Made by a program: the position numbers and the translations under genes. A stretch of DNA of 44,187 nt, filler included, from Jimgerdemannia flammicorona (taxonomy: Eukaryota): assembly GCA_003990765.1 (NCBI GenBank). It is 2 parts of 2 records of this genome, joined end to end, with 100 filler letters (N's around TTAATTAATTAA, not from the genome) between each part and the next. Parts side by side here need not be neighbours in the genome. Positions count along the whole stretch, not along the records: positions 22,150 to 44,187 come from RBNJ01001345.1; 1 more part is not named here. One strand, given 5' to 3'. The notes below the pieces were generated by a model. It was not told the DNA's origin and did no database searches. It saw only the letters and a list, made by a program, of their open reading frames with translations. Positions 4,548 to 35,469 of the stretch are shown piece by piece. Position 1 is the first letter of the stretch. Every line of letters begins with the position of its first letter.

Positions 4548-4789
4548 GATCTATTCACACCAGTAAGTTCTTTATTTTCCTGATTTACTTCCTATTTTTT
4601 TCCGATTTCATTTTGATTTCTGATTCCTAATTATGTTTCTGTTTGTTTATTCTAAATATATATCTTAGATGTGCAATATATTTTTTTTGGTGCCTTGTAG
4701 CTTAAAGACAGATTAAAGATGGGTCTGTGTTAGGTTAAATACGGGTCAGGGTTGGGTCACATATATTTCTTGGGTCGGGTCATGTATAT

Positions 4790-5040
4790 TTCTTGAGTTG
4801 GGTTAAAGATGGGTTACATATAATTCCAGGTCGGGTTAAAGATGGGTGATATACATTTCCAGGTCGGGTTAAAGATGGGTGATGTATAATTCCAGGTTGG
4901 GTTAAAGACAGGTGACGTATTATTCCAGGTTGGGTTAAAGATGGGTGATGTATTATTCTGGGTCAGGTTAAAGACAGGTGATGTATAATTCCGGGTCGGG
5001 TTAAAGATGGGTGACATATAATTCTGGGTCGGGTTAAATA
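4790..5040. repeat. 33-bp tandem repeat (CCAGGTCGGGTTAAAGATGGGTGATGTATAATT), ~7-8 copies, hAT subterminal repeats
   Basis: Head-to-tail units ending about 30 bp from the TAGTG-type terminus. Confidence 0.85.
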
Positions 5041-5073
5041 TGTATATGGGTTGGCTCAGGTTGTGATGCACTA

Positions 5074-12219: not shown

Positions 12220-14136
12220 ATGGATGGCAATAATCGAACTGGTGAGCATACTGGCCAGGGGAGTGATGGCACCTTTGGCTGGCAGCAGGTGGGGAGGAGG
12301 GGAGATGGTTTGGGGATGCCAGGGGCCTTGATGGCTAGCCGAGGTCCTGGTGGTAGAGGGAGGGGCAGGCTGAGACAGAGAGGAGGAGAGAGGTTGACCT
12401 TTACTGATAAGGTCAGAATGGGCAAGATGGTCTCAGGCCTTGATGGTTGACTGGGCCTGGGGATGGCGTCAATGGCAGCTACTGGGGGACAGGGAGGTGT
12501 ACTCAGGGGAGTCTCAGGTAGCAGGGGAGGAGCAGGAGTAGGGGCTGGAGATGTGACTGTTGATGGGGCTGTGACTGGGGATCTGGCAAAAAATCCAGAT
12601 GTGACAGCGGTTGGCAATTTGGGACTGGGCATGGGCACGAGGCCCCGGGACCTGACAGATGGAGTGACGGGCATGGTGTCAGCCCTGTTACTCAAGAAGT
12701 CGAGGTCAGAATTCATGGTCACAATGTGCTTCCAGGGCTTGGCAGTGATGGTAAGGATGATTTTAAGGCTGGTGGTGCAGGAGGCTAAGGGTGTAGCGTC
12801 GGTGAAGTTTCTGAGGGGAAAGGAAGGGATTGAGATGGGGTTTGAGGAGGAAGACGCCTTGTTGGCAGCCATGGAGAAGAGGTTGATGGTTGGTGGGGTT
12901 GTGGTCCCTATGGCCTGGTGCATACGCTGGGACCTGTGAGTGGTGCAGTTGATGGTGTTGGATCTCTCTACTGTATCGAAGGAGAGGATAAGGGAGTTGG
13001 TTGTGGCGGCAATCCAGGAGTATGGTGAGATTGTCGATATTGGGTTCAAGGTCTGGGAGGGAACGGAGCTTCAAACTAGTGATGTGGATGTCAGGGTAAG
13101 GCTGGCTGGGAAGGAGAATATGGGGAAGTCAAGGGACTGGCCAGCAATGTTGAGGTGGGGACTGGTGGAGTGTAAGATCACAAGGGTGAAGGAGACCCAG
13201 GAGGAGGAGGAGGACCTGTTAGAGGCTCTGAAGGATCTGGAAGGTGTGGTTGCGAGGAGGAGATTGGCCTGGGAGGAGTTTGAGGCCAGGATGGTAGTGG
13301 GGGAGGTGGATGGGAAGAGGGTCCAGATGGAGAAGGGGGCCTGGGAGAAGATGCAGGGGAGGTGGATCCAGAAGGAGCTGTTGGCAAAGTTGAGTGGGAG
13401 TAGGGCTGGTGGAAGCTCAGGGGAGGGAGTTGCTGGGTTGCAGGAGAGCGCCTGGGCTGAGGGGGGAGAGATGGCCCAGGGCAGGGCTCAGATTGGAGTG
13501 GGGGAGAAGAAGGAGGGCAATTTGGAAGCAGATGCCAAAATGGGTGAGGGTGTGCACCCTCAGTATAGTGATCCAGATGGAGTGGAGGGGGAGGAGGAGC
13601 TGATGGATGTGCCAGATGAAGAGTGGGATGAGTCAGTGAGGAGGAGCGTGCTGGTGGACCCTGAGGTGGATGGGGGATGAATCGCCCAGGGTGCGGCTGA
13701 GGCGGTGGATGAGGAGAAGTAGATGTGGAAGACCCTGGAAGGGGTAGTGGCTGAAGAGCTAGGGGGTGAGGACTTCTGGGTGATGGAGGAGAGGCACTGG
13801 GAGGAGATCCTACAGGAGGAGGAGGTGCTGAGGAAGATGAGGAATGAGATCCTAGCTGTCCTCCTGGAGTTAGTTGAATATCAAGTTGATGGTCAGCAGG
13901 AGGAGGAACTTAGGAAGATTGCAAGTGACAGGGCACTCTTTTTGTGGAACTCAAGGAAGGGACTGGTGAAGTGGCGCGCAGTCTGCTTGGACTACCGGGC
14001 GGATATGGAGGAAGTGGACAGGGTGGAATGTCAGGAAATCTTGGGGGCACTGGATGCTCAGGATATCACAGAGGGTGACTTGGAAGCTGAACAGTACTTG
14101 GATCTGGCAGGAGATGAGATGAGCATGGAATTATAG
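12220..14136 (+). pseudogene. LINE ORF1 (Gly-rich N-terminus, RRM-like core, acidic helical C-terminus), with in-frame stops
   Basis: In-frame ORF pieces 12220-12450, 12463-12939, 12940-13680 and 13723-14136, separated only by TGA/TAG stops; IQEYGEIVDIGFKVWEGTELQTSDVDVRVRL. Confidence 0.8.
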
Positions 14137-14167
14137 GTTGGGGTCTTTGTTGTAACATTCCTTCAAT

Positions 14168-17100
14168 ATGAACAGTACAACTAGGATATTCTCGCTGAAT
14201 GTTAATAGGTTACAGGGGGTGGCTAGGAGGAAGTATATTTGGTTGGCTTAAGGGACTGGATGTGGACCTCTTTTTGTTGCAGGATGTTCATTATGAGGCT
14301 GATGTGGACTTACAGAATTGGACTAGGGAATGGGGGGGTGAGGCATTTTGGAGGGGGAAAGTGGGTATTCTTATTCAGAAAGGGATGGGGAACATTGGGG
14401 ACATTGGACATTGGGGGTCTTGGGTGGTGTGGGGAGTGTGGAAGAGGCCTGGATGGGGCCCACTGATGGTTGGGTCTTGTTACTGCCCAGCTGAGAGAGG
14501 GGAGAGAGTGGATTGGATTTATCGATTGAATGAGGCTGGAGTATTAGGAGGAGTTGGACTGGACTGTTTGGGGGGTGACTTCAATATGGTAAGGGATAGG
14601 AGGTTGGACAGAACTGATGGTGGGAGAGGCATGCAGGGTGAGAGTGGTGGGTTGGGTGACTGGTTGGAGACAGAGAGGTTGAGCTCTCTAGTGGACTCAG
14701 AGAGACATTTTTGGACTGATTGGTGGGTATACACCCACTGGGTGGCAGGGCTGGGCTCCAGGATTGACTGGGTTCTAACAGCAGAGTGTTGGGGAGCAGA
14801 TGTCTGGTCAGGGCTGGAAGTTGTATGGTGTCTGTGGTCTGATCACTGGGGGCTACTTGGAGGGGGGAGGTTTGGGGAAAATGAGAATAGGCCTGGACAT
14901 TGGCAGCTAAATTCTTTCTTGTTGGAGGATAGGGGGTTGTGGGAGGGTTGGGAAACAGAGGTGGTGGGTAATATCGGCAGGTGGCAAGAATAAGGACTGG
15001 AGATTGGTGACCGCTGGAGAAGACTGAAGGCGAATGCTCAGAGGTATTGGAGGGAAGCTGGGAAAGGAAAATGTACCCAGTGAAGGCAGTGGGTGTGGTG
15101 GGCCTCACGGCATCTGGCAATACTCATGGAAAGATGGGTAGGTGTGCTGGAGGATGGGGACGTGACTGATTGGCATATTGTGAGAATCTGGCAGGAGGTG
15201 GAGGAGCTTAAAGGGGTGCTACGAAGAGAGGAGGAGGAGCAGTTGCAGGGAATGGTGGCCTGCCTGTGGTGGCAGGGGCTTGAGGAGGGGGAGAGGCCAA
15301 CTAGGTTCCTGTCATGGTTGTTACAAGCATGACGAATGAGGCAGCAGTGGGAGGGGGTTTTGGATGTGGACAGTGAGCTGATGGTAGGGACTCTGGTGAT
15401 TCTGGGACTATTGTGAACCTGGTGGGAGAATCTTTGGAGTGAGGAGGAAGGAGGATTAGATGCTCTGGATGTTGAAAGGCAGCTGGGGGATTGGTACCTG
15501 AACCCTGTGATGGGACTTGGGGCATTGGGGGACCCAGTAAGTGGTGAGGAAATTTGCAGAGTTGTGGCCTCAATGAGTAAAGGGACAGTCCCGGGAGAGG
15601 ATGGACTTTCCTGGGATTTTTGGCAGAAGATGACTGGGGTGGGTGAGATACTAGAGGAAATGACAGCTATGTGCGATGGAGTTCTTCGGTCTGGTGTTTG
15701 GATTGGGGGACAGTACCTAGGGCTAGTCTCCTTGCTCTATAAGAATAAGAGAAGGTGAGAGGACTGGAAGAACTGGCAGCCAATTATGCTTCTCGACATG
15801 GACCACAAACTGGTGACGAAAATTTTGGTGGTGAGACTGCAAGGTATTGCTCAGCAGGTGCTTGGTGTGGAACAGTGTGGGTTTGTCAGTAGTCAGTTGA
15901 TTCGAGATGGGACAGCCTGGGTTCATGGAGTGATTGAAGATGCCTGGGCAGCAGGGGTGGATGGCAGGTTGGTGTTTCTGGACCAAGAGAAGGCTTATGA
16001 TAGGGAGTGGAGAATATGGCTGGAGGGTGTGCTGAAATGGATTGGTATCCCTCAAGGGTTCCGAGGATCATTGATCAGTCTCTTGGAGGATAGTCAGGTG
16101 GCATTGGTCATCAATGGCCACAGGGGGGTGACCTTTCCCCTGGGATGTGGGGTACTACAAGGGGACCCCTTGTTACCCATTTTGTATGCCCTTTCCCTGG
16201 AGCCACTCCTGGACAGAATTCGGCATCAGATTGAAGGTTTGGACATTTTAGGGGTTAACTGGAAGGTGGGGGCCTTTGCTGATGATATGGTGGTCGGGCT
16301 GGGCTCCTTGGTGGATGTGGGAGAGTTACAGAGGACTGTGGAATAGTATGAGAGGGGTTCTAGTGCTAAGCTAAACTGGCACAAATGCGAGACACTGGTG
16401 CTGGGCACTGGAATTGTTGGTGGCGATGTCATTGGGACAGTGGTACCGGCTGGTGAACCGGTTCATTACTTGGGGATCTACTTCTCGGTGTTTGGATCTC
16501 TTCTTCCCCGAGCATGGTGGGATCATAAACTTCTGGAGTGGGGTAATGTTTTGCTGCATTGGGGAGGCTGGCATATGTCTCTAGCTGGGAGAGTGATGGT
16601 GTTGAATCTATACTGGATGCTGAAGCTGTGGTATGTTGGATATCATTTGGATTTCCCAGCCTGGGTGGTCAAGGGGCTGTTGAAGATGGTGAGATCATAG
16701 ATCTGGGGAGGGTGGCAAAGCCAGGTTGGTTGGGAGGTGCTCACACTGCCCTTGGAGAGAGGTGGGCTGGGCTTAGTAGACTTTACTAAGTGGCTTCTTT
16801 GTCTGAGAGCCTGGTGGCTGTGAAGGGTGAGCAAGCTTCAGGGTCAGGAGTGGGTGCCACTCATGTAGAGATTATGAGAGGTTTGGTACTCTCCACATGG
16901 TGGTTCTGGTGATTTGCTCACAATGGTGGCCATGGAGGGGAGCAGGAGGATGCAGTTTATGGGCTTTTGGTGGGGGGTGGTAGATGGTGCTAAGAAAATT
17001 GGACTTCGGTGGTGAGATGATGAAGCTGAGGAGGTTTGGGGCCTGCAGATGTGGCAGTGAGACAGGCTTCTACTGGGTGGCATTCTGGTGGAGAACTTTC

Positions 17101-17828
17101 AGCTTGGCGAGGGTCTGGAGAGTCTGCGAGGCCTGGGTAGAGACCTGTGGCCAGAAGTCTGGCAGAGGGTTGGAATTGGTGAGGAGTGGGATTGGAATGG
17201 CCTCTGGCATTAGAGCAAATGGGTGAGGCAGTGGCTGCCCCCCAAGTTCTGGGTGGTGTGGTGGCGAGTCCTACAGAGGAATATGATGTTGAACTATCGG
17301 TCGGGACACTTGGTGGCCAGTGGAGTATTTAAGTGTGAGGATTGTTTCAATGTTGGTCAGGAGGGAGGAGTGATACAAACACCTGAACATTGGCTTGGCG
17401 AATGTGAGGTTTTGGAGAAGTTCTGGAGATGTATTATGGACTAGGTGGGGCTGGGTGCTATAGAGAGAAAGGGAGGGGGGAGATGGGGAGAGCTTCGCTG
17501 GAGACTGGTGGGTGGGGTTGGGGATGAATGGCTGACCCTTAGTTGGGCTTTGGCTATGTGGGTTGGGTTGGCTGGGCACTGGGTTCATGTCTTTGAAGAA
17601 GGGCATCAGGTCAGGGTTGGTGAAAAGGTAGCCCATTGGGAATGGTTGCTGTTGGACATTTTGAATAGCTGGTGGCAAGGATGGGGAGTGGGTGGGGGGA
17701 ACCACAGAGGTCTGGTGCAGTGTATATCTCAGAAGAGTAGTGGGAGGATTCGGGTCATTGGTAATTGGGTAGTGCTCAGGCAGGGGGAGGTTGAGGAGGG
17801 GGGGTTGGGTCCCCAGGGTATTGATTGA
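14168..17828 (+). pseudogene. LINE ORF2: apurinic endonuclease, reverse transcriptase and C-terminal CCHC
   Basis: SLNVN, LLQDVH, GGDFN, SRIDW, SDH (APE); HWQLNSFLL, EGERPTRF, PGEDGL, LDQEKAYDR, QGDPL, FADD, YLGI, GGLGL (L1/Tx1 RT); CEDC...EHWLGEC. Confidence 0.92.
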
Positions 17829-20248
17829 GGGTGGGGGAGATATTGTATTGTTAACAATATAGACTTCAGTAATAAAGGGCAGTCCAAGAGACTATAAAAA
17901 AAAAAAAAAAAAAAAACTATTATATCTGACCAAGATACCAAGTTTACAAGCAACTTCTAGAAGGTATTCTTCTCTCTCTATAGAACTAAGCTGAAGTTCT
18001 TTACTACTTACTACTCTTAGACTAATTGTCAGACCAAGTGAACTAATAGGACCCTCAAGCAGATATTCAGCATCTTCTGCTGTTACAAGTAGAATAATTG
18101 AGACAAGTATCTAGCCCATGCCAAGTTTGTCTATAAAAATAGCCAGCAAACCTCTATGAAGAAGACCTCATTCTTCCTGAAACATAGTCAATACTCAAGG
18201 ACCTCAAGTACTCCTGTGAAATTAGTAGTTCCAGCAGCTCAAGATTTGGCTAAGACTATTTCTGACTTTATGCAAATGATAAGAGATATTCTTATAGAAG
18301 TACAGGACTACCAGACTAAGTATACAAACTTAAAGTAAAGAGAAGTCTCCTATAATATTGGTGACATAGTTATGCTTAGAACAGACCATCTCTATCTAGA
18401 TACTCTGGTATAGTAACTATTCAAGAAACTCTATGCTTGAAGAATTGGACCCTATAAGATTGTGGAAAAAGTCAGAAAAGTCAACTACAAGTTGTAACTC
18501 TCTTATAATATTCAAGTATATCTGGCATTCCATATCAGCCAATTGGTAGACTATTATGAGAACTTATTCTCTGAGTATACAGTTCTACCACTATCCCTAA
18601 TTAGGATCAATGACTATGAGGAATTCAAAATTGAGAAAGTGTACTTAACCACAAGGTCTACAAATATGCCAAAACAGTCAAGTGGTTTTTCCTTATTAAG
18701 TGGAAAGGTTACCCCACCCATGATGCTACCTGAAAAAAAGAAGAAATGCTAAAGAATGTATAAAGCTCTTCAGGACTATATAGAAATACTCACCCCCAGC
18801 AGAGAAAGAAACTATAGCTCTAAAATTTAGAGTACATAGCAAAAGAAGAAGATATCATATTTATATAAGATATACAATACTGAATATTACAGAAAAAAAG
18901 AACAACTATAATTAATCAATAATAGAATACTCAGGCAAAGAACAACTCAGCAAGATACAGCAAAACATATTTGAACAATTCTATTTCACACCATCTGTAT
19001 CATCTCTACTGGAGAATGACAGATACTTCATATAGAACTTAAGAAAGCCAATGACATCAAAACCAATCAAAGTCTATCTACATGATAGATATTGTTATTA
19101 AAAATTATCTCAGATTATAAGAAATACTATTTCTGAGAGGTTTGAATCCCAGCCACAACAATAGGAGCCCTTGCCTTAGACAAAGATGGTTAGTCCTCAC
19201 AAATATATCAACAAGATAAAAAAAAAAAAAATGGACTAAGATCTATCCATTCTGTATAACTATATTTATAATATAGTGATATATTTAAAATTAGAATTTT
19301 CTCATATGACTAGTACATGTCCTGCTTACAGCAATAAGTCATACATTCTACTGGAAAATGTGATCAAATTAAAGTCATATCAGATAGATTAATAAATATA
19401 AATACCTTGGGCTGAAGCATACTACAACTTCCATCCCCCTCTTCTCTCTCTAAAGAAAAGATAAGATAAGAATGTCAGCTATCTGCTGCCAAATAGCCCA
19501 CTATAGCCAGCCTCTCTCAAGCCAGGTTGACCACCTTTTTGGACACATTCAGGTCACTATCCAAGGAAGGAACTGCTGCTCTAAGATCCTTAACCTCTTT
19601 AGCCAGGACCTAGGACAGTATGTCCTTGACTACTGTGAAGTCATCAAAAGGACCTACCTTGCTATCAGCTGCCTAGAAATCTAGTATAAATAAAAAATTG
19701 TCCATCAACTTCTTAATATATAAATGACCTACCTACTGATCAGACCTCAGACTGGACCAACCTAGTAGGTATAAGCAAAGACTAGATAAGAAGGTCTATC
19801 AAATTATGTACTATACACTCTTTACAATTTCCAATCTCAACTATGTACAACTGAAAGACTTTCAGAACCTCTCATTCTTTGAGATTGTTAAGCTGGAAAT
19901 CAAGATTATCCAAGAAGCCAACTTCTGGATTACTTTCAAATCCACTAATTATAAATCTCACTGGAGCTCTCTCTTATATAACAATCTAGACCAATGGCTC
20001 TAAGGTCTCTCTGATCTTTTTGAAGAACTGCCTATCTGAATAGATATTTCTAGGCATAAGGAATAAGAACTCAACTTAGATGGTCTCAATTATATTAGAT
20101 GGAGAACTCTTACTTCAATATCTATATTAGTTTAAGAACTATTTGTAGACCTCATTGACTTCTCTATCTTAGATATTGAGTCATCAGCAACTATCCCTCT
20201 AGCCACTAGAGGAGAAGATAATAATACTGATTTTTAAGAAGAGAAAGA

Positions 20249-21638: not shown

Positions 21639-22049
21639 TGTAACAGACCAAAAACGTACCACCTGAATTATAACTTAGCCAGATGATGCGAACAATTAGC
21701 ATACTTACTCAGCATGATGTGACTTCCAGTGTATCATAGTTACTCATGCCCGCCACACTTATAATTAGCCAAGACACCAGATCAGGATTGTTTACCTGTG
21801 TCCTGCGGACACACTCATGTCCTGCGGACACACTCATGTCCTGCGGACACACTCATGTCCTGTGGACACACTCATGTCCTACAGACACACTCATGTCCTG
21901 TGGACACACCTGTACCCAGAGAACACACCCAAACATTACCAAAGATAGCAAATGTATAATTAGCCACATAGTAACCAGATAGCAACCAACTTGTATAAAT
22001 TACCCCAGTGGCGAGAGTGAATAAAACCTCAGTCCGAAAGTTGAATACA
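21639..22049 (+). mobile_element. Gypsy-like LTR, cut by the assembly gap
   Basis: Starts TGTAAC; TATAAAT...AGAGTGAATAAAACCTCAG is similar to the LTR at 25247-25695. Confidence 0.65.
21799..21909 (+). repeat. 19-bp tandem repeat (TGTCCTGCGGACACACTCA), ~6 copies, in LTR U3
   Basis: Read directly; each unit contains a TGTCC/GGACA dyad. Confidence 0.9.
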
Positions 22050-22149
22050 NNNNNNNNNNNNNNNNNNNNNNNNNNNNNNNNNNNNNNNNNNNNTTAATTA
22101 ATTAANNNNNNNNNNNNNNNNNNNNNNNNNNNNNNNNNNNNNNNNNNNN
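22050..22149. other. Assembly gap with artificial six-frame-stop linker
   Basis: 44 N + TTAATTAATTAA (22094-22105) + 44 N. Confidence 0.97.
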
Positions 22150-22189
22150 AAAATGGCATTGCTGATGCTTTATCCCGCACTGATCTTCC

Positions 22190-23254
22190 TTGTTTCCATC
22201 GTCTTGCCCCTTACACTCAGACGCTTCTGACTGCGATTGGTATCATTTGCATTCCGCGCTTCCACCCATCATTGCCTTCTTTTTGTGGTTTGGACTGGCA
22301 AAATCAATGCGCCACTCATACTCTTCAGGACAATGCAGCTTCCTCCAATTCTGCAATCTCCATGGCGGTAATTATGCCTCCGGCAGGCCTTTGCCCACAT
22401 CCGAACTGGTGCTAATGCGGTGGGTCTGTAGCTTGGCCTTGCGATGGCTTCAACCATCCACAATCAAATGTTACCTCTCAGCTGTTCATTCTCTACACAT
22501 TGACTCCGGTTTTGCCAATCCATTCATCAGTCTTCACCAACTTCCCCGAGTGATGCATGGCATGAAGCGGTGGCTAGGCATATGCCCAACTCGACCTCGG
22601 CTTCCTATCATGCTTGGTATTCTTCACAGTCTTATCAGTTTGCTTCAGCTATCTGATTATGATGATCTGCATCTTGCGACCACGATGTTACTTGCATATG
22701 TCGGCTTTCTTCGCTCCGGCGAATTTATGTGGGATGGGTCTTTCGATCCCGTTTCCCAGCTGTCCCGCGGCTCTGTGGTCTTTTAACCTAGCATTGCCGA
22801 CCCCACCCATATTACGCTCACCCTGCCGGCCTCTAAAACAGACCCGTTTTGCCAGGGTGCAATACTTTTTATTGCCAAAACGGATCCCGCCATGCCATGC
22901 ATTGTATCCTTACTTCGCCTTCTTTACCTGGCGCACCCAGCCCCACCCGACACCCCTCTGTTCCGGCGTTCCACGAATCGATCATTCTCTCGGGTCTATC
23001 TCATTAGTCGTCTTTGTATGTTACTTTCACAGATTGGTCTGAATCCACTTCTTTATGCCGGGCATAGTTTTCGGATTAGTGCAACATCCGATGCCGCTGC
23101 GGCCGGTTTATTCGATTACGAGATTCAGATGTTGGGTCGGTGGGAGAGCGTGGCATTTAAAGGCTATATTCACATGCCTATTTCTCACATTCTCCACCTT
23201 CAGGCTTCATTAACTCGTAATACTTGTTCTGTTACTCATATTACTTGCGATTAA
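22190..23254 (+). pseudogene. Tyrosine recombinase (DIRS/Ngaro type), one in-frame TAA at 22784
   Basis: STIKCYLSAV, RLPI, GFLRSGE (R), SKTDPF (K), GHSFRI (HxxR), LGRWES, GYI (Y). Confidence 0.93.
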
Positions 23255-23278
23255 CGATTTCCCGTTCCTTTTTTTCTA

Positions 23279-23644
23279 CCGCATAGCCCGCGACACCAGC
23301 TTATTCCGGGTCCCACGTGGCATGTGACACCAGCCTTTACCTCTCCTCATCAGCCTTACATTACCGCGTGGCTCGCGACACCAGCCTTTAATCCACCCAC
23401 CTCTGCCTCTTGCCACCGTGTAGTTCGTGATACCAACCTTTTCCAACATTGTGCGGCTTGCGACACCAGCCCTCCTTCTTTTTGTTATCGCGCAGCTCGT
23501 GACATCAGCCTACTCAGACCCCCATGCAACTCGTGACATCAGTTCTATCCCTCGATCGCTGGGCTCGTTAAATCAGCTTCTTGGCTGTCGCATGATTCGC
23601 GACACCTGCCCTCGGTTTTAACCGCGCGGCTCGCGACACCAGCC
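23279..23644 (+). repeat. Array of ten 23-bp repeats (consensus CCGCGYGGCTCGCGACACCAGCC) with unique 9-29-nt spacers
   Basis: Copies start at 23279, 23313, 23364, 23416, 23449, 23488, 23522, 23556, 23588 and 23622. Confidence 0.85.
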
Positions 23645-23824
23645 ATATCATCGACATTGGGCGCAGCCTTTCTATTAAGCCTTCGGCACCTTTCTATCAT
23701 CTACTCCGCTCACATTTCTATATCTATAACCCCCTTTTTACTTCATTTGGGCCAAGTTCTTTCTTTCGGTGCTGCTAACTCACACTGCTACACATCATCA
23801 TCCTGCACATTTTACATATAACAT

Positions 23825-24575
23825 TTGGGCCGGTCTTTTATACCGTGTGTTTCCACCCAAATACAGAACAATCGATCATTTATTTGAGGTTTCTTTCCTA
23901 GGATTTCGGGGTGATACATGGTCATTTCGGTGACATGGGGTTATTGGTGTTTTATCACGAAGATTGACATCATGTAAGTGTAGCGTAGTTGACATTATGC
24001 AAAACATAGTATAGTTATGCCTCCCTAGCATAGATCGACATTATGGCAAAAACATTGAATGAGGGGGCTCGCTCGAGACCACAGGTCAATGAATGCAGGA
24101 AGGTCTTGGGTGTATAGTGCCCAAAATGTTTCAATGCCATTGTTTGTCTAAGGCATGTCTAAATCAGGCGTAGTCTTTCCTTTTTTGGTACTAGCGCAGT
24201 AGACACATTACTTCTATATGTAATTCTACCATTCACTCAACATTACTTCGTATGTGCTTTACACTTACACTTTTGCACTTCTGTACATTTATACGCATTT
24301 CATTACCACCCACCTCACCCTACATATATATACATAGTGGTTGGGCTGGTCTTTTATACCATGTGTTTTCACCCAAATACAGAACAATTGATCATTTATT
24401 TGGGGTTTCTTTCCTAGGATTTCAGGGTAATGCATGGTCATTTCAGTGACATGGGGTTATTGGTGTTTTATCATGAAGATTGACATCACGTGAGTGTAGC
24501 GTAGTTGACATTATGCAAAACGTTGTATAGTTACGCCTCCCTAGCATAGATCGACATTACGGCAAAAACATTGAA
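23825..24575 (+). repeat. Split direct repeats B1 (23825-24059) and B2 (24341-24575), 235 bp each
   Basis: TTGGGC(C/T)GGTCTTTTATACC...GGCAAAAACATTGAA present twice, differing mostly by transitions. Confidence 0.92.
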
Positions 24576-25695
24576 GGTCCTGATATATCAGAATATGGTA
24601 GAAACTTCATGGTCACAAAAACTGGAGCCTAAGTGGGAAGAACCTTACCTTGTGCAAAATATAAAAGAGACCAACTTTTGACTATGAAAACACTCAGGCA
24701 CAATCATCCCCACTGCTATTTACTAAAACTGACTCAAGAAGTATTATGGTCAATCAACAGAGTAATATCACAGCTCTCAAAATTACCAGTGCTACACAAT
24801 GAGCCATAGAAAGACAGTAGTATTCTACCAAGCCACCAACTATAGAGGAATTGTTTGATAGTATTCAGAGTATAGTACAAATACACTTATCACAAATTTT
24901 ACATTTTAAGATATACCAGGACTGGACAAGTTTCAAGAATACTTCAAGCTTGAGCAAATACTGAATTTATAACTAAAAATGGAAAAAGAAGACTGGACCT
25001 GAGAATGCCAGCTCTCTTATACTCAGATTACTATTGCCAAATAAGTAAACAAGTTGTTTAAAGAAGATGAAATGGCTTTAGCTTATATCTGAGAAGTAAC
25101 TCCAACAGACTTCAGACATATCAGGAGATAATATTGGGAGAATATAATGATGCAAATTATATAGTACAAAGAGATACAAATTGTAGAAGCTGGGAGTTTG
25201 AGTAAATAGAGTATCTTAGAGATGAATCACCTATTCAGGAGAAAGTTGTGATAGTTGATCTGAATTAGAAACATAAATCAGGAGAATTAGACATTTGATC
25301 ATAGTATCTGAAACCAATTTCTAATATAGTATAGCCATATAAATAGCCATCATAGAACTTTGCTACTAGTGAAAACCTTATTACTAGCAAATACTTTGCT
25401 ACTAGTGAAAACCTTACTACTAGTAAATACTTTGCCATTAGCAAAATGACTCATAACTTAGCCACCTTATAGCTAGCAAACTTGTATAAATAACCCAGTA
25501 TCTCAGAGTGAATAAACCTCAGATTGAAATAGTTCAAAGTAAAGAGAAAACAAAGAAACTAGTAAGCCTATAGGTAGATACACTTTGAACTCACCCACCC
25601 CTGCATCCCAAGGACTCTGCAGAGTCAAAGAAGATCAAGTTTTCAAGATAGAGAAATCTGATGTACTTCCAAGGTTAAGCATTTACTATGTTATA
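24576..25695 (+). mobile_element. 3' end of a second Gypsy element: integrase GPY/F tail, accessory ORF remnant, PPT and 3' LTR (~25247-25695)
   Basis: KLEPKWEEPYLVQNI...LKKYY; PPT AGGAGAAAGT then TGTGAT; TATAAAT/AATAAA in the LTR; 18-bp tandem repeat at about 25357-25445. Confidence 0.7.
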
Positions 25696-26869
25696 ATATC
25701 TAGATAAGCTACTCAAGAATTTCTTATTACAGAGACTCTATATAGTATCTATCTCTTCTCTTATTATCTTATTTTCTATTATTAAATTTTATCTTAAGAC
25801 TATTTTAATAATAATCTTAAGACTAGAATTCATGGGCTCTCCTCTCCATAACTCTGACTCTGATCACATTATAAAGACCTCTCTTTTGGATAATCTCTTT
25901 GCTCTTTCTCTTTTTATTTATACTACTGATATAACTACTAGTAATTCTATATTTTCAACCTAGACCACCTACTCAAATAGACACAGATACAGATAAATTC
26001 TTATCTCAATATCCCCTCTAGCCTTGCCACCAGACATAACTGCTTTCTATAGTCTTCTATTTGAGTTATATTTCAATAGTCACAATTAGTACAAATATTC
26101 CAGTCTTGTATAAAAATATATCATTATATATCTGCCTGTATTCTGTAATACAGTCCTTAGTCTAGCATTATTTAGTATAGATGTTCAACCACAGACATAC
26201 TTATCATCTCAAGTTTTAATTTAATAATAATATACTAAAATTAGAAAAGAAGATAGATATGAGGAGAGAGAGAGAAATTAACTTGAGTGTTTAGATTTTT
26301 AAGGTCTAAAAGAATGTTTTGTATAAATCAGAACTTCATAAATAAGTCAGTAAGGTGAGAGGATAGAGAGAGATAAGGTAGAAAGAAGAACAAGAAATAA
26401 GAGATTAAGGTAAAATATATAGTATAGTATATATTGATTTTATTATATTGTGGAATATGGTAGAATAAAGCCTCATGACTCTTAACTCATTCAACTATAC
26501 AATGATACTATTATTAGACACTCAATGTCTCAGTCACTAATAATACTATTATTATATATATATATACTTGGAGGATGATATAAATTTTACTGACTTTAGA
26601 AGTTGAGAGTTTATAGCTATATTATGATATATATGATTAAAGTGAACTGTATAATATTAATCTGTATGAAATCTAGTATAATTATTTTCTTCTCCTTTTT
26701 AATAACTATTTGTATCTTTTTAAAAGTTTTATCTTAATCTATATTATCCTTCTTCTCTGTTATTGACTCCTTCAACTATATCCTATAGACCAATAATAAG
26801 AAGATAGATTAGATAATAGATATGAAATACTGAAAGCTATTTGAATCATATTTAGATATATATATATAT

Positions 26870-29800
26870 ATATTTTTTTTTATTTTTATTTTTTATAGTT
26901 ATATAGACTTCCACTTTATTACCAAACCATCTATAATATACAGTTAATATAAATATACTCCTCACCCAATCCTACTCAGAAATTTCTCTCTCTCTCTCAC
27001 TATTACCAAAACACTGCCAACCCCCCCACTATCTCCATCCTCCCCCCACTCTTTCTACAGATTATATTCACCAATTATTACCAATACCCTCCCCCAGTAC
27101 TTCCACCCCTCTACTACCAATTCAATATATCTAATATCAGCCACTCTTATTTAACTATCCTCATCCCCAAGAGCAACTGTTGATCCTCCTCAAATACAGA
27201 AAGCCAATGTCTGGTCAGTCTAATCCAAATTACTAGCACTCATCCTAATATTAGCCACTCATCTCCCAACCCCCCTATCAGCCTCCTCTGGAGGTCATCC
27301 CATCTCACTCCTACTACCAACTCTGGTGAGTACACCCCCAGCTACACCTCAATCTTTCTCCAAAAGTCCCCCATCACCTCATACTCCTCTAGTCAATATT
27401 CAGGAGTCTGTACCACCTCTCTCTCTTCTGCTCAATGTTCAGACACTTCTTGTACTCCCAGATATCCCTTTTAACCAAGTGGCCTATCTGATAGTTTAAC
27501 ATATTATTGTACTGTAAAACTCTCCACTATACTACCTGAACTTGCAGGGGATCTATCTTGCTGCCTGCTTGCCCTACTGCCAAATACTATTTCAGTCTCA
27601 CTTCTTGCCAATTCCCACTCCCTGCTATACCTCAGGCCACAGATCTCTCCCATATTCCCAAAGGCACTCTATGCCATCCTCCAAGCAAAAATCATCTACC
27701 AGTACTCCACTTAATAGAAGATAGTCCCACCTCTATATCTGGGGTCTCCATTTCTCCTCCCTCTCATTACCCCTTTATTGGAGACCAATATGGTATGCCC
27801 CATCAGCTACCCCCTACCAGAATCTTCTATACTATATCCTCTGACTTCTCTCTAAAGCCACCAGAGAAAGAAGATCCCCAGTCACACCATGGGGGGAGAA
27901 TTGAGCTTTCCACACCTACTATATAAGGGGAACCCACTCTCTGCCCCTCAACTTGCTCACTTCAGTGACCATACTTTCAAGTAGTGAAGATGCTTGGAAA
28001 AATCTATTAGACCCAGGCCTCCCCTGTCCACTGGCCAGATCAACACCTCTCAACCAATCTGACTCTGTCACTCTATCTATATTCAGGTTCTGGCCATCTT
28101 TAGCAGTTACTTGACCACTCATGCTGAAATGTCCAAGTGGTATCCTAGATATTACAGCTTAGGTGGTCAGTTTACATTCATCACAGTTACTCTTTCTACC
28201 AGAGAAATATAGTGACCACCCCACCCTAAGAGAGTACTTCTCTACTCAGCCAACCTCTGCTTCCACCACTCATATGGCAGTAAGGAGCCACATACTGAAA
28301 AGTAAATTTCCAGATAGTGAATAGCCTCTCCTACTGAGACAATTGTTTCAATCATATCCCCACCTACTATTCCTCCTCTCAGCACCAAAGTCTCACACTT
28401 ATATCAGTTGAGCTTGATACCTAAGTACTCTTCATATCACTCTACTGTACCTTACAGAGCTGTAATATCTACAACTGACCCCAGTCTGACCATATTATCA
28501 GTAAAGGCCCCCACCTTCCAATTAATCTCTAGTATGTCCAACTCTCCCACCTTATACTGTATTTTATCCAAAAGTGGCTCCAGAGATAGTATATATAGAA
28601 TTGGCAACAGTTGACCCCACTGCAGCACTCCTCTGCCCAGAGGGAAAGAAATCCCTCTGTGTCCATTCAATATAATTACTGCCTGACTCTCTTCCAACAG
28701 ACTGACCAAGGTCCACCAGGCTCTATGGGGGACTCTAATGTACTTTAGCACCCTTTTCAATTACACTCACCAGACTCTATCATAGGCCTTCTTCTGATTT
28801 AAGAAAACCAGTCATTCATCCACCCCAGCAGTACAAACACTCTCAATAATATCATACACTCAGGCTATCTCATCTCTGATCAGATATCTCCCTATGAATC
28901 CTCTTTGCTCAGCCTCCAGAACTTATTACACTACTCCCTGCAGCCTAGCCACCAGTACCTTCATGACTAGTTTGTAACCCATATCCAGAATCATGATTTT
29001 TTCCACTCTTCCTACCTCCTTTTATTCTTAAACAGCAGAGCCACAAGACCGAAGCTCTGCTCTCCAATCCATACCCCAGAGTCTATTACTTCATTGTATA
29101 TTATTATTATTTTCTCCAGGGCCAACTTGACTCCTACAATCCTTTTCCAGAAATTCCATTATAAGCTATCCTCCCCTGCCACAGTTCCAGAGCTTGTTGT
29201 CTACAGAACTTACCAAATCTCCTTGCTCTAGACAGCAGCACCAAGATTGCCTAAGTCTGCTGCCAAATCAGGGTACTATTCCTCCAAGTACCTGTCAATG
29301 TCCAATACTCCCTCACCACTATCCTTCTCACTTCACAGGTATTCCCACTGCTTGCTCAACTGGTCCAGAATCTCCAGTGTCCCAACAACCAACTCTCCAG
29401 CCTCATTCAAAATCCCCTCCCACTGCTGCCAGACTCTTCTTGTCTATAACAGCTGTGACAAAAACTTGATAGGTTATTCCCCCTCTTCCAATCTCTGCCA
29501 CTATAGCCTGGCCACTATGCTCTTAACCTGTAGGTCCTTCTTCTGATACAGAATGCCCTTCAGCTCCTCTACCTCCAGCCTGGTCTATTATATATGCCAA
29601 TCTCCCTCCTCTCTTTTATTTGTCTGATCTGCCCAAGTCACTAACAACCTCACCAACCTCTAGGAGGCCCACCTCATTTGCTTTTTCCTCTGAGTACCCT
29701 GCATCCTTCTTGCCTCCCCCCAATACCATTGTGCCTCAGATTTCAATCATACTAAGTGATCCCTAATCCCCAGTCCTGCTGCTCTCCAACCAAGAATCCT

Positions 29801-32800
29801 AGAGCTAATGTCTATCTAGTGCTCCTAATGAGTCAATTTAATCCGGATTGGATTCGGATTGATTCGGATTGAATCCCATCCAGATCAACTCAGATGGGAT
29901 TCGAATCCCATCTGGATGGATCAACCATTGTTTTGATTTCCAAATTAGACAATTAAATGTTTACATCAATAACTTGATGAATAATCATCCAAATTTGATG
30001 ATCTTGGTGTCATTTGAAAGTCCTTAATATGGCCTATCTAATGATACCAAGAACATTGAAATTGGATTATGTGTTGCTGAGTTATGAAGGAAACCATCTG
30101 AATCGCCGATTTTGGAAATTCTTCGATTTGCCAATTTTGGAAATTTCGTCAAATGTAACGTTTTCTTTAATATCTCAGCAACACGTAATCCGATTTTAAT
30201 GTTCTTGGTATCATTAGAAAGGCCTTATTAAGGGCTTTCAAATGACACCAAGATTATCAAATTTGGATGATTATTCATCGAGTTATTGATGTAAACATTT
30301 AATTGTCTAATTTGGAAATCAAAACAATGGTTGATTCAAATCCATCTGGATGGGATTCGAATCCCATCCGGATTGACTCGTTTGGAGCACTATGTCTATC
30401 ACTTATGCCTCCTATAAGGAGGCCTAACCTAGCAAAGAGATATTCAGTTGCCAATATCCAGGCCCCTCCCCACCTCTCCCAAAATACCCCCCTCCTAATG
30501 GACCCCAGTAATCTGATCACAGACACCATAAAGTCTCTAAATTTCTCCAGATATCAACTCTCCAGCAATCTGCAGTCAATATCCAGTTAATCCTCAAGCC
30601 TAGCCCTGCCACCTAGTGGAAAAAGACCCTATAATCCCCACATCCAAGTCTCCCAGCATCTATTAGAGAGCTCAAACATTCGACTTCCTCTCAGGCTTCT
30701 ATACCCCCACTCCTGTCTGTCATCTCTCTACCCCTATTAGTTCTGTCTATCTTTCCATCATATATTATGTTAAAGTCTCCCCCTAGACAATCAATCTCTG
30801 CCTCCACCAATACTCCAGACTCTTATAGCTCTCAGATCTATTCCATCCTCTCCCCTCTTTCTACTGGACAATAATATAACCCAACTATCAGAGACCTCTA
30901 GCCTGGCCTCTTCCAAACTCCCACACTTCCCTACTCCTCTAATGTCTAATGTCTCCAATGTCCCCCTTACTCTTCCAAATCAGAATACCCACACAACCTC
31001 ATCAAACAGCCACACTACTTCATTCTTTCATCCAATCCTGACTATCTAAGTCTCTATCATGCCTAATATCCTATAGTAAGAACAAGTCATCTTCTATCCC
31101 CTTCAGCCATCTAAAAAGATATTTTGCCACCTCACTGCCTCTTATAGCCCATTGACATTCAGATATAAGATTCTAGTTATACTGTTTATATTGAATAATA
31201 TTGTTTAAATTATAGCTATATACTCTATAATTCCATACTCACAGCATCTCTAGCAATATCCAGGTCCCTATCTACCTCCAGTTCATTTGTCTCTCTATAT
31301 TGAGCCTTCAATATCTCCAAGATCTCCTGACAATCCTCACTATCCACAGCCTTCATCTCTGTACAGTACTCTTCATACACCATCTGTCACTTTGCCAGCT
31401 CTTTTCTTAGGCCCCATATATAATCAGCTCTATTATTTGCAATCACTAGAAGTGCTGCCTCTCTGATGATATTGATCTGATATACCTTAGCCTCCAACAA
31501 TACCACTATTATATCATCCTGGAGTTTCTGTGGCACCTCTTCACTATATATGATTTTCCCCCAATGTCTCTCACTTAGTATCTGGAAGTCCTCTCCCCCC
31601 AGCTACTCAGCTGTCATATTCTTAAGTATTTTCTACAGCCATTTCTCCTTGACCTCAGTCTCTGCCACTCTCTAGACAACTCTCATCTCTCCCTCCACCT
31701 ACCTCCCCTCTGCATTCCTCCTTGCTGACTCATCCCAATCCTCCTCTAGAATATTCTGCAATTTGTCATCAACTCTAGCCCCACTTGGTACCCCATACTG
31801 AGGGTCCTCTCTCTCTGCTATCTCTGCATCCTCCACAATAATACTCAGCCCTGCACCCTCTCCCTCTCCTGGGATCCCCTCTGGTGCTGCCCTCTTCTAT
31901 TCTACCCAGACACTTGCCTTCAATTAAGCCATTTCAGTGGTGGTCCCCCCAGCTGCCCCCCCTCTCAACTTAGCTAGCAGCTCTTTCTGAATGTACCTTC
32001 CCTGTGCTCTCTTCCAGGCTGCCTGATCTAGCCACACCTTGCTATTGACAATCTCTACAATCATCTTGGTCTCATACTTCTTTCAGGCCAATCTTCTCCT
32101 CTCCACAGCTCTAGCCAGATCCTCTATACCTTCAGTAAGTCCTCTTCTTCCTCTAGCATCTCTTTCACTTACAAGATCTTATACTCTACAGGTTCCCACT
32201 TAAGAACTGCCAGCCAGTCCCTTGCCTTCTCTGTATTCTTCTTACCTGCTAGCTATACCTTGATGTCCACATCTCTTGTCCTAAATTTGGTACCTTCCCA
32301 GACCCTAAACCTAACATCCACAATCTTCTCATACTCCTTGACAGTCTCTACAATCAACATCTGGCCATTTCTTTCAACACCATAGGAACATCCAGTACTG
32401 TTAGCTGCACTACTCAGGAGTCCCAGTGCAAGCACTGGGACATAGAGATTACTACTCCCCCTACTATCACTCTCTTCTCCATTCTCTCCAATAGTATCTC
32501 CTCCTTCTCAAAGCCTATCTCCACCACTTTTAGTCTCTTCAAAACTTCACCAATGTGGCCCCCTTCATCTTCTGAGTCAGAAGCCTAAGAATCATCCTTG
32601 CTGTCACTACCAAGCCTCAGAAATATAATTTGATAGTGAATTCTGACCTCAATTTCTTAAGTAATAGTGCTGTCACCAGGTCTGTCACATCATCTGTCAG
32701 GTCTCTGAGCCTTGTGTCCACCCTCTGTCCAGATTTACCATCAATTATTACATCTGGATTTTTTTCTAGGTTAGTAGTCCTCTTGCCATCAGCAGTCTCA

Positions 32801-33201
32801 ATCCCACCAGCCACTACTCTCCCAGCTCTACTGCTCTCACCACTACAAGCTGCTCTCCCAGAACCTACAGCCCTCACTATCTCCTTACCCTTTTTCAGCT
32901 AGCTCTACAGTCTTACCATCAGTTGACCTTCCTTTATCTTATCTGTTAAACTTATCCTCCTAGTCTCCTATTTCCCAGTACTACCTCCTCTTCTTCTATG
33001 TTCTTCAGCCAGCAAGTCCCTCATACTTCTCCTCAAACCATGACTTCTCCCCACATACTGTCAGTTAAATATACTAAGGCTACTCTACCTAGCATATACC
33101 TCAGAATACTCATCAGTTGCCATGTTGCTAGTATCTTTTCTCCAAAAATAAAGTCTTGAATATTATTTGAAGTTTGTATAACCAAATATTACCAGAGAAA
33201 G
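26870..33201 (-). mobile_element. Degraded near-full-length copy of the L1/Tx1-type LINE
   Basis: T-rich tail ~26873-26895 with TTTATT signal; ILYILSLEPLLDKI..WKVGAFTDN (28452-28760); ORF1 LLLKKLRSEF (32617-32877); family 5' UTR at ~33125-33201. Confidence 0.9.
29817..30392. mobile_element. Non-autonomous hAT element (palindromic MITE, 576 bp)
   Basis: TIRs TAGTGCTCC..GAGTCAAT / ATTGACTC..GGAGCACTA; perfect 8-bp TSD TGTCTATC (29809-29816, 30393-30400); long internal inverted arms. Confidence 0.95.
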
Positions 33202-33428: not shown

Positions 33429-35469
33429 TGTAAGAGGGTTACTTTTTAGGATAACTGTTATGTAGTTCTGGAAGGGTTTTCTGGAAGTTCGGGATATTCT
33501 GGAAGACCGTTTTCTTATGGTCAAGGTCAATTTCATATGGAGTATGTCCTCTACGCTTATTAATTTCAAGATTGGGTTGACGTCTCAACCAAAGTCCTTT
33601 TCCGGACTAGTTCTGGATGTTCAGGATTTTCCGTATTTCAGGAAGTTCAGGAAACTAAGACCAGCTTAGTTGGATTGGCATATCGCTGCAGACAATACCC
33701 AATTAGGAAATTTCGTGGCAGGGTTGGGAGTGGGACCTAACAGGGAGCGGATTTACTTAAGAGTGATTTGTGGGTTATGGAATAGATTTATTTGCTATTC
33801 ATGATATTGCTATACTAGGAGTATTTGTGTGAAGGGGTATTATGGGGAAGTATTCAGGAATGTTCTTGTCTGTTCGAGTCTCAGATTCTGAGGTCTGGGA
33901 GAGGGGGTATTTATACTAGTGAGGGGCTATCTGGACTATGCTAGATATGGATGTAGCACTAAGTGCCTTGCTGAGTCGGAATGCAGTCACGTAGTACAAG
34001 TGTGATCTGACATGTCAAGAGATCATCTGACTGCTGAGTCAGTTCACAGTTACATCGTACAAGGCTAATCTATCTATACTATGACTGCTAGACTATTTAT
34101 AGGTCTAGGCACTATCTGGGTAGTCTTCGATGACATCACCATCAATTGCATCATCTCTGATGAAGTAGTCGTCTAGGAAGAGTGGTTCGTGGATTACTTC
34201 TCCTTGTTGGCTGAGGTAGTAATATATTGGGACTTCATCTCCGTCCCATAGGATAGTATCATCTGTCTCGTATGCTGGATAAGGTGTTGGTAGGCGAAGG
34301 ATGGGTGTATTGTCTTCACTTTCATCAGATCCACTATCTGCGTACCTTCTATAGGTTACAGCACTATGAGTCGCGGGGTTGTAGTAAGCTGGCGGCTGTG
34401 GTTCAAGTTGCTTGTACTCGGGTGGTGTGGTTGGTTCAATCTCGAGGGTTGTCTGGAGATACAGATTGTGTTCTCTGGTCTCTTCATTGTAGTTGAAGTA
34501 GTCAGGGGTGAATGCAGGTTAGTATTCGTGCCAGTGGTCATTGTCCCAATAAGTCTCGTATGCAGTTATGAACTGTTGTAAGTTCATTGGCAAGGTTGGC
34601 GGAGATCCTTGGCTAGAGGTCATATCAGCGTCAGAGGGGTTGTTGTCTTCTGCTTTGTCTTCATCGAAGTGGATTATATCATAGACGTCCTTCATGGCAT
34701 ATCTGACTTGAGGCATTTGCAGGATATGGTCATCGGGGTGCGGGAAGGTTCTGTCTGTGGTTTCGACATACTCGAGGTACTTGTGGTTGATTTCTTGTAT
34801 CATGTCATCGATTTGGCCGTAGGACAGGGTAGCAACCATTTCGCTGGTAGTGACTCGGAGGCGGGGAATAAAGGTGTTGTACTCATAGAAGAGTTCTCGA
34901 TGTTTGCGGGCGATGAGCTTCTGGTGTTGAGACATCTGGATAATGTCTGTATCATGGTGGTGTTCGACCATGTCTTCCAGGAGGCAGCCGATCTGGTAGT
35001 AGCTTGAGATTTGTCTGATTCGGTGTGCCTCGCTAAGCATGTTCAGGGCGTTCCATCGGGCTTCCACGAAGTAGAGGGGTGCCAGGCTATGGATATTCAT
35101 GAGGGGCAGAGGGGGTGTGGCTCGGTTGACAATGGCATTCCAAATGTCAGTGCGGATGCAGTTGTAGATCTCAGTGGTCATGTTGGTGTGTTTGGAAGTT
35201 GGGGTTGTTGTTTGTTTTGGTTTTCTGATTCGACGCATCTCGGTGCTCAGTATATATGCATTTGGTCCTGATTGGTAAGGTTCCGTTTGTGTAGATCTTG
35301 TATTCCGTGACTTCATATTGACTCAGCTTTGTGTACTGTGACTTCGGTTTGACTCAGCTTCATGATCAAGCAGGTGATTTCCAGATTTGTTCAGAGGTCG
35401 CGTGTGATTTCAGTGGCTTGTTCAGAGGGTGATGTGTAATTTCGGTGGCTTGGAGGTTGTGCGCTTACA
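33429..35469 (-). repeat. 3' LTR (2041 bp)
   Basis: Colinear with 41991-44054; TATA at 33908-33915; preceded on the minus strand by a PPT. Confidence 0.93.
34105..35316 (-). CDS. LTR U3-encoded protein of unknown function: 265-aa ORF plus an in-frame acidic 137-codon extension after a TAA at 34519
   Basis: Open frame 35316-34519; the same frame stays open to TAG at 34105; a homologous frame is present in the 5' LTR. Confidence 0.7.

Follow-up and report, generated by a model that had tools for sequence, protein, structure and literature searches.

A ten-unit repeat array in the 3′ untranslated region of a Ngaro-type retrotransposon from Jimgerdemannia flammicorona as a candidate set of reiterated binding sites

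An array of 366 nt, comprising ten direct CpG-rich units of 23 nt and nine unrelated pyrimidine-rich spacers, was mapped on the + strand (23279–23644) of the window, that is, the whole 44,187-nt stretch of Jimgerdemannia flammicorona DNA that was analyzed. It is most likely an insert that is lineage-specific and non-coding and occupies part of the 3′ untranslated region (UTR) of a Ngaro-type tyrosine-recombinase retrotransposon, located between the stop codon of the recombinase gene (YR) and the terminal B1-A2-B2 repeats. Judging from the sequence, we tentatively regard the units as candidate reiterated binding sites, read in linear form and kept in the active lineage, and give this reading slightly less than an even chance. 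Protein binding (recombinase loading or packaging) appears to be the best-fitting idea for the array.

Host element and its 3′ end

The host of the array is predicted to be a Ngaro-type tyrosine-recombinase retrotransposon, truncated at its 5′ side by the contig end and inactivated. As the contig with the element begins at 22150, A1, gag, RT, and most of RNase H fall outside the window. The last residues of the RT/RNase H frame (22152–22214, + strand) hold a motif beginning NGIADALSR and overlap the start of the YR frame. Nine of the 21 residues were identical to the end of RNase H in the Mycena protein P0010 (E 0.007, in a single comparison with a 21-residue match), and the RNase H part of P0006 had no match in the window. 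In both P0006 and P0010, an RNase H-like domain lies immediately upstream of the recombinase.

The YR frame (22184–23254, + strand) spans 356 codons, with an in-frame TAA at 22784–22786 and the terminal TAA at 23252–23254, and is a dead copy. It is the only YR copy in the window. A total of 482 homologues were retrieved, the best of which were 40–43% identical and came from Agaricales fungi (E 1e-60 to 1e-68). In the catalytic region, the conserved columns (R, K, H-x-x-R, and W) align, and identity to the YR of L076, a complete relative, was 36% over 320 residues. A Pfam search of the window YR copy returned no hit; the relatives match Phage_integrase weakly.

About 30 codons lie between the RNase H end motif and the N-terminal region of YR, whose frame overlaps that of RNase H, and, judged from this frame spacing, there is no methyltransferase-like domain between RNase H and YR. 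The same layout was found in P0006, P0010, and L076. The missing methyltransferase-like domain sets Ngaro apart from the DIRS1 and PAT types. The RT/RNase H frame (22152–22415) and the YR frame overlap in the window, and an overlap of 258 nt occurs in L076 (5773–6031). In Mycena relatives, gene predictions fuse the two frames at differing points.

The 3′ end of the element is formed by a split direct repeat on the + strand. The arms B1 (23825–24059) and B2 (24341–24575, the 3′ end of the element) are 235 nt each, 93% identical, and 516 nt apart from start to start. A2 (24060–24340) was assigned by its position between them and is presumably a copy of the missing 5′ A1. The A1-[ORFs]-B1A2B2 layout of Ngaro elements is given in the open-access text of PMC9210276 and PMC8547959, and fungal Ngaro elements are surveyed in that of PMC3783388. 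With its recombinase directly after RNase H and B1-A2-B2 at its 3′ end, the window element resembles Ngaro (DIRS order), and the Ngaro context proposed in the preliminary description was borne out by the YR homology, the B1-A2-B2 end, the RNase H end motif, and the RVT_1 domain and A1 copy of the relatives described below.

Units, spacers, and folding of the array

The ten units start at 23279, 23313, 23364, 23416, 23449, 23488, 23522, 23556, 23588, and 23622, all on the + strand, and are separated in unit order by spacers of 11, 28, 29, 10, 16, 11, 11, 9, and 11 nt. Mapping of the unit starts, the core count, and the weight matrix confirmed exactly the ten 23-bp units and the spacer lengths of the preliminary description. 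The array also lies close after the YR stop as described, but the distance is 24 nt (23255–23278, + strand) and not 25 bp. On its other side, a unique, non-coding segment of 180 nt (23645–23824, + strand) with no unit-like match leads to B1. All ten co-oriented units lie within an ordinary pyrimidine-rich UTR: pyrimidines make up 83% of the leader before the array, 66% of the segment after it, and 73% of the spacers (99 of 136 nt), in agreement with the earlier claim of mostly pyrimidine-rich spacers, and 57% of the units. The array was read base by base in one decayed copy only.

The 17-nt core of the unit, with up to three mismatches, matched seven times in the 44-kb window, always within the array, where 0.02 matches would be expected by chance; none of 100 shuffles reached seven. 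With a weight matrix made from the ten units, the units scored 21.6–35.1 bits, and the best other + strand position in the 44 kb scored 15.5. Neither this matrix nor a half-matrix retrieved an eleventh or partial unit, including in the long spacers and the array flanks, and no other match to any spacer or unit was found within the window. The start of A2 (24066–24090) was rejected as an eleventh unit at the recombination site, its alignment score being 18 against a background of 18–22 and the weight matrix missing it. Truncated units in the two long spacers are not claimed either; an 8-nt likeness was seen by eye at 23348–23355, and no half-matrix hit exceeded the 99.9th percentile.

The majority consensus of the ten units equals units 3 and 10, the Y position excepted, and contains four CpGs along with two short palindromes, one an 8-mer that is nearly palindromic and the other 6 bp long. 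The 3′ half of the unit is best kept, with no change at G12, A15, A17, or C19; at C2, G14, A20, G21, and C22, nine of the ten units agree. The periods of the array range from 32 to 52 nt, six of the nine being 32–34 nt, and only three (51, 33, and 39) are divisible by three. All three + frames of the array are interrupted, and their translations had no Pfam match. Thus, a repetitive peptide ORF, which had been named as an alternative, fails.

Units and spacers differ sharply in likeness. The pairwise identity of the units was 68% on average (48% for the lowest pair) and 95% in purine/pyrimidine terms; 47 of the 230 unit positions depart from the consensus (20%), 41 of them by transitions. Over their first nine positions, the spacers were 31% identical (61% in purine/pyrimidine terms), compared with 30% and 60% expected from composition. 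When the seven spacers of up to 16 nt were aligned with gaps, their likeness equaled that of shuffles (p = 0.76, or 0.32 in purine/pyrimidine terms), and among the 45 pairs formed by the nine spacers and the 11 nt after unit 10, the best p value was 0.039 and nothing survived correction. These spacer tests are low in power, the sequences being 9–16 nt long and of low complexity. Tandem Repeats Finder returned no rows for 22000–25000 at a minimum score of 30, which agrees with a likeness confined to the units. The head-to-tail homology over the whole period that marks a minisatellite is absent.

With transitions prevailing at about 15:1 and six spacers retaining the basic length of 9–11 nt, a common spacer that had decayed at an equal rate should stay recognizable, and none is. 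Since the units are conserved and the spacers are alike only in composition, neither simple slippage nor a 34-bp satellite decaying uniformly is adequate as an explanation. The preliminary claim that the array is not the product of simple tandem slippage was therefore upheld, and its proposed check, a decayed minisatellite of about 33 bp, came out in its favor, as the spacers do not align with each other above shuffles.

A neutral origin of a less simple kind is the chief competing explanation and deserves serious weight, although we consider it less likely than not. A block of about 34 nt would have been amplified by slippage or template switching as a functionless, VNTR-like minisatellite hitch-hiking in the 3′ UTR, its pyrimidine spacers being scrambled by small indels while the more complex cores were changed by point mutation only. 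Internal tandem repeats are common in the non-coding parts of retroelements. This origin accords with the six periods of 32–34 nt, the direct orientation of all units, and their likeness of only 68%. The adjacent units 6–8 carry one and the same variant at position 18 of the unit, and the likeness of units 6 and 7 reaches 94% over 17 nt, as expected from local duplication. Moreover, pyrimidine tracts may change fast by slippage and so mimic constraint on the units, the low power of the spacer tests counts in the same direction, and the array is missing from 25 relatives of the same layout (see below) and hence dispensable. What weighs against neutrality is that the six spacers at 9–11 nt have a purine/pyrimidine identity at the level of composition, whereas the units reach 95% under the same excess of transitions. 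The spacers are also not visibly unstable on the time scale separating two copies, as the 28-nt spacer has the same length in the second copy, and Tandem Repeats Finder was empty even at a score of 30.

The units had been described as stem-loops or RNA structural sites, and this part of the description found no support. Compared with dinucleotide shuffles, the array folded no better (z of +0.40 on the + strand and +0.58 on the − strand), and the z values of the two best-kept single units ranged from −0.67 to +0.60. The GGCT...AGCC complementarity of the consensus amounts to 4 bp around a 9-nt loop, and the fold predicted for the unit on the + strand is CGCG/CGCG; thus, "stem-loop unit" is a reading and not an observation. 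A search of Rfam with the array (E up to 1) gave no match. The combination that marks a structured RNA, a fold beyond shuffles with compensatory pairs, was not found.

Hairpins in the RNA or single-stranded cDNA (GGCT/9-nt loop/AGCC or CGCG/5-nt loop/CGCG), acting in packaging, priming, or strand transfer, are accordingly worth considering only as an unlikely explanation. For GGCT/AGCC, 85% of the 40 unit-by-pair cells can pair, two-sided changes occur in three of the four pairs (four cells), and the covariation score was matched by 10–14 of 500 shuffles, a count that 5–25% of unconstrained alignments reach with this tool. Two of these double changes sit in unit 7, and the transitions per unit, tallied by hand for units 1–10, were 4, 3, 0, 6, 5, 5, 9, 4, 4, and 1. 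Given this mutation load, about 2.1 double-change cells would be expected by a hand estimate, compared with the four seen (Poisson tail of about 0.17), and a 4-bp stem is marginal in itself. For CGCG/CGCG, 90% of the cells pair, but 232 of 500 shuffles do as well, that is, with no excess. The position of the array is favorable to hairpins, as it would be close to where first-strand synthesis on the RNA presumably begins.

Decay of the array and its distribution

B1 and B2 differ at 16 sites, comprising 15 transitions; 10 of the sites are at CpG and 6 are non-CpG. In the units, 30 of 150 non-CpG positions are off consensus by a hand tally. Compared with the six non-CpG differences in 235 nt between B1 and B2, this suggests that the divergence of the units is mostly older than the present insertion.

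The observed/expected ratio of CpG was 1.15 in the array region, 0.86 in the YR gene, and 0.64–1.15 across the Ngaro copy (22150–24575), as opposed to 0.00–0.19 in the neighboring transposons (1–22050 and 24576–33000). This difference points to a strong CpG-directed decay of repeats in the source genome and to a comparatively recent arrival of the Ngaro copy. The array in the window is decaying along with its element, mainly by C-to-T and G-to-A changes, and 24 of the 40 consensus CpGs survive in the units. It is a small example of the survival of CpG-rich sequence where older transposons have lost nearly all CpGs.

In public sequencing runs, 8% of the sampled words were found, in two soil-metagenome DNA runs only (X1 and X2). 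None of the public runs containing the stretch was listed as RNA, which has no bearing on expression either way. In X1, a contig of 254 nt was identical to 24082–24335. In X2, 23 contigs fell on the element with 85–99% likeness. Their differences from the window were A>G at 28 sites and T>C at 25, versus C>T at 17 and G>A at 7, the window thus mostly reading T or A. At 22784, the X2 copy reads C, giving CAA instead of the in-frame TAA of the window. A 260-nt contig of X2 corresponds to 23106–23365 with 18 differences (about 7%) and no gap, covering the end of YR and the first two units with the spacer after each, and the length of the 28-nt spacer is unchanged in it. Further X2 contigs over 23528–23689 contain a single 1-nt deletion, at 23598. 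Between these parts of the array, contig cover was 0 at 23366–23446, and the depth was 0.08 at 23447–23527. Both ends of the array are present in other copies; the array is part of the family. As X2 may be from the same organism, its contigs show other copies and not other species.

A metagenome scan with the recombinase alignment yielded 79 loci with 31–45% recombinase identity. None of the 79 contained the 17-nt core with up to three mismatches, or at least two matches of an 11-nt core with up to one mismatch. Downstream repeats were examined in 66 loci (13 were too short): 25 had a repeat pair 341–751 nt apart, 12 had some other longest self-match, and 29 had none. The 25 relatives of the same layout are a lower bound, as the longest self-match alone was kept per locus. 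From the end of the YR match to the start of B1, these relatives have 63–305 nt, compared with 571 nt in the window copy; they lack room for an array of 366 nt and ten units such as the window element has between the YR stop and B1. In all nine relatives tested, the segment after B1 recurs 4.4–5.7 kb upstream with 97.7–100% identity, which is the A1 copy, and RVT_1 was detected upstream of YR in L076 (E 5e-17) and L049 (E 5e-16).

The 1.5 kb after the recombinase was also scanned for recurring motifs in the 71 of the 79 loci that were long enough. At least seven copies of some 14-mer occurred in five of the 71. Rejected as analogous arrays, judging only from their recurring motifs and the positions of these, were L026 (a T/G tract), L054 (a T tract), L048 and L072 (strict 25–26-nt tandems beginning at least 1 kb downstream), and L079 (a G-run motif doubled by B1/B2). 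When L045, L053, L062, L034, and L029 were read by eye, there was no unit-plus-spacer array in any; their content was a 200-bp palindromic insert, CTG-rich low complexity with a plain tandem, and three loose G-rich motifs. Among the 71 loci scanned, none thus has units and spacers arranged in a comparable way directly downstream of its recombinase gene. The unit pattern also matched 4 loci in viral contigs and at least 120 loci in contigs of prokaryote genomes; these matches were dismissed as chance, there being one per locus in unrelated GC-rich DNA.

The insert in L045 (7745–7975, about 200 bp) lies 0.8 kb past the recombinase gene of this distant Ngaro relative. It has inverted ends of about 20 nt, is filled with CTCGAGCC-type palindromic motifs, and has the look of a small foldback element.

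The question raised beforehand, whether the array is absent from related elements, received a divided answer: it is absent within the reach of the scan (0 of 79 loci), but both of its ends are present in other copies of the family. The array appears to be specific to its lineage and not a general requirement of Ngaro elements. Since 25 relatives of the same layout are without it, its function, if any, is not needed for Ngaro transposition generally. As these relatives are only 31–45% identical in YR, the absence shows lineage specificity and not a lack of function.

Candidate functions and surroundings of the window

If the units are reiterated binding sites, as we prefer, the array would have originated through tandem duplications of an approximately 34-nt block, as suggested by the six periods of 32–34 nt and the variant common to units 6–8, and would already have been in the source copy of the family. 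In the active lineage, the 23-nt cores would have been retained while the intervening sequence was free to vary. The cores would be sequence-specific sites recognized as linear sequence, the substrate being either double-stranded DNA (the integrated copy or a circular intermediate) or unstructured RNA. The binder may be the recombinase or Gag of the element, or a host factor for CGCG-containing sites, to which we assume that the CGCG-type motif of the units could be assigned. We infer the duplication origin, the constraint on the units, and all of the binding function. The divergence of the units (20% from the consensus, with pairs down to 48%) is loose for ten working sites and speaks against binding, as does the fact that the prevailing C-to-T and G-to-A changes cannot affect the invariant A15 and A17.

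Reiterated sites are known from other mobile elements, such as the 12-bp subterminal motifs of En/Spm (CACTA) and the 22-bp TnsB sites of the Tn7 ends, and arm-type sites are used by tyrosine integrases of the lambda family. The array resembles these systems in having short conserved sites in many repeats, with irregular and unconserved spacing, near the recombination end of the element, and the recombinase encoded by its element belongs to the tyrosine class, in which arm-type sites are used. However, binding is putative here, the ten sites share one orientation and are seen at a single side of the element, whose 5′ end is missing, and the nearest terminal junction is about 0.4–0.9 kb from the array. 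We know of no arm-binding domain in a eukaryotic retrotransposon recombinase.

A more specific form of binding, in which the recombinase of the element itself (or Gag) would be loaded onto the circular DNA intermediate at the ten units, is rather unlikely by our estimate. This platform would lie a few hundred bases from the B|A junction, where recombination is expected. If such a platform were true, it would correspond in a eukaryote to the arm-type sites or iterons of bacterial integrative elements. It would also be the first protein-binding array known to act in cis in a tyrosine-recombinase retrotransposon and would open a way to study how these poorly understood elements assemble their integration complex. 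Iteron-type arrays include plasmid iterons, the EBV family of repeats (site and spacer with a 30-bp period), and the STB repeats of the 2-micron circle of yeast, another element with a tyrosine recombinase gene. The array shares with them a period of about 30–35 bp, a conserved core with a looser spacer, and an element thought to pass through circular DNA. It has no sequence similarity to iterons, however, so the comparison is pure analogy, and no replication or partition function of Ngaro circles is known to us.

The reader of the sites might also be a host protein. A cluster of host transcription-factor sites (of the CGCG type or the CCG...CGG type), with an enhancer effect on A2, or on A1 in a circular or tandem form, would be a special case of the binding-site reading and is quite unlikely. 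Fungal zinc-cluster and MBF-type factors recognize motifs of these types, each consensus unit offers its four CpGs and both palindromic stretches, no other part of the element is as dense in CpG as the array, and the array lies about 0.4 kb upstream of A2. Nevertheless, a conserved unit of 23 nt exceeds the length that such sites need.

Among arrays without a binding role, the closest in kind are VNTRs and minisatellites of retroelements, such as the VNTR of SVA and tandem repeats within the UTRs of LTR elements. These are likewise internal, non-coding, lineage-specific arrays with periods of tens of bp in a retroelement untranslated region. The present array differs in its unrelated spacers, the lack of homology over the whole period, and the empty output of Tandem Repeats Finder. 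Even as a neutral internal repeat, it would still be a useful family marker.

A CRISPR-like or small-RNA-producing repeat-spacer array, the latter of which had been suggested beforehand, is highly improbable. CRISPR arrays are prokaryotic and have regular foreign spacers of about 26–72 nt, a leader, and usually cas genes. The likeness is confined to the outward look of conserved repeats with dissimilar spacers. In contrast, the present array lies in the 3′ UTR of a eukaryotic retrotransposon with no cas genes, its spacers are irregular (9–29 nt), 73% pyrimidine, and of low complexity, its repeat forms no stable hairpin, and neither spacers nor units match elsewhere in the window. It is not a member of the CRISPR class.

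The current picture of reverse transcription, circularization, and integration of tyrosine-recombinase retrotransposons depends almost wholly on sequence-based models. No cis-acting sites other than terminal repeats are described in the open-access text of the Ngaro papers PMC3783388, PMC9210276, and PMC8547959, nor was such an array found there; the word "tandem" is absent from the main text of PMC3783388 and PMC9210276, and "tandem repeat" is absent from the accessible text of PMC8547959. Literature searches over open-access text likewise yielded no description of an array of this kind. Ten copies of a long defined motif beside a recombinase gene would provide a concrete oligonucleotide to be tested against the proteins of the element.

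The window joins separately assembled contigs at an artificial joint (22050–22149; 44 N, a 12-nt all-frame stop linker, and 44 N), and features are thus not to be read across it. The AT-rich Gypsy-like sequence before the joint is not the upstream neighbor of the Ngaro element. At the end of that preceding contig (21799–21905), there are about six head-to-tail copies of a 19-nt repeat, the later ones with CpG-to-TpG/CpA changes. Just past B2, the translation of 24576–24700 resembles, as judged by eye from the usual motif, the C-terminal part of a Gypsy-type integrase with stops. If this is so, the Ngaro copy sits inside an older AT-rich Gypsy remnant.

Other repeats were observed farther from the element. 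Seven copies with a 33-nt tandem period occur at 4764–5071, in a region where both strands carry open frames that overlap. The GC skew was extreme over blocks of several kb at 12000–18000 (+0.37 to +0.55) and 27000–33000 (−0.35 to −0.50). The segments 33429–34890 and 41991–43475 are direct repeats of at least 1.4 kb, 89–93% identical and 8.56 kb apart, and probably represent either the LTR pair of a large element or an element in two tandem copies.
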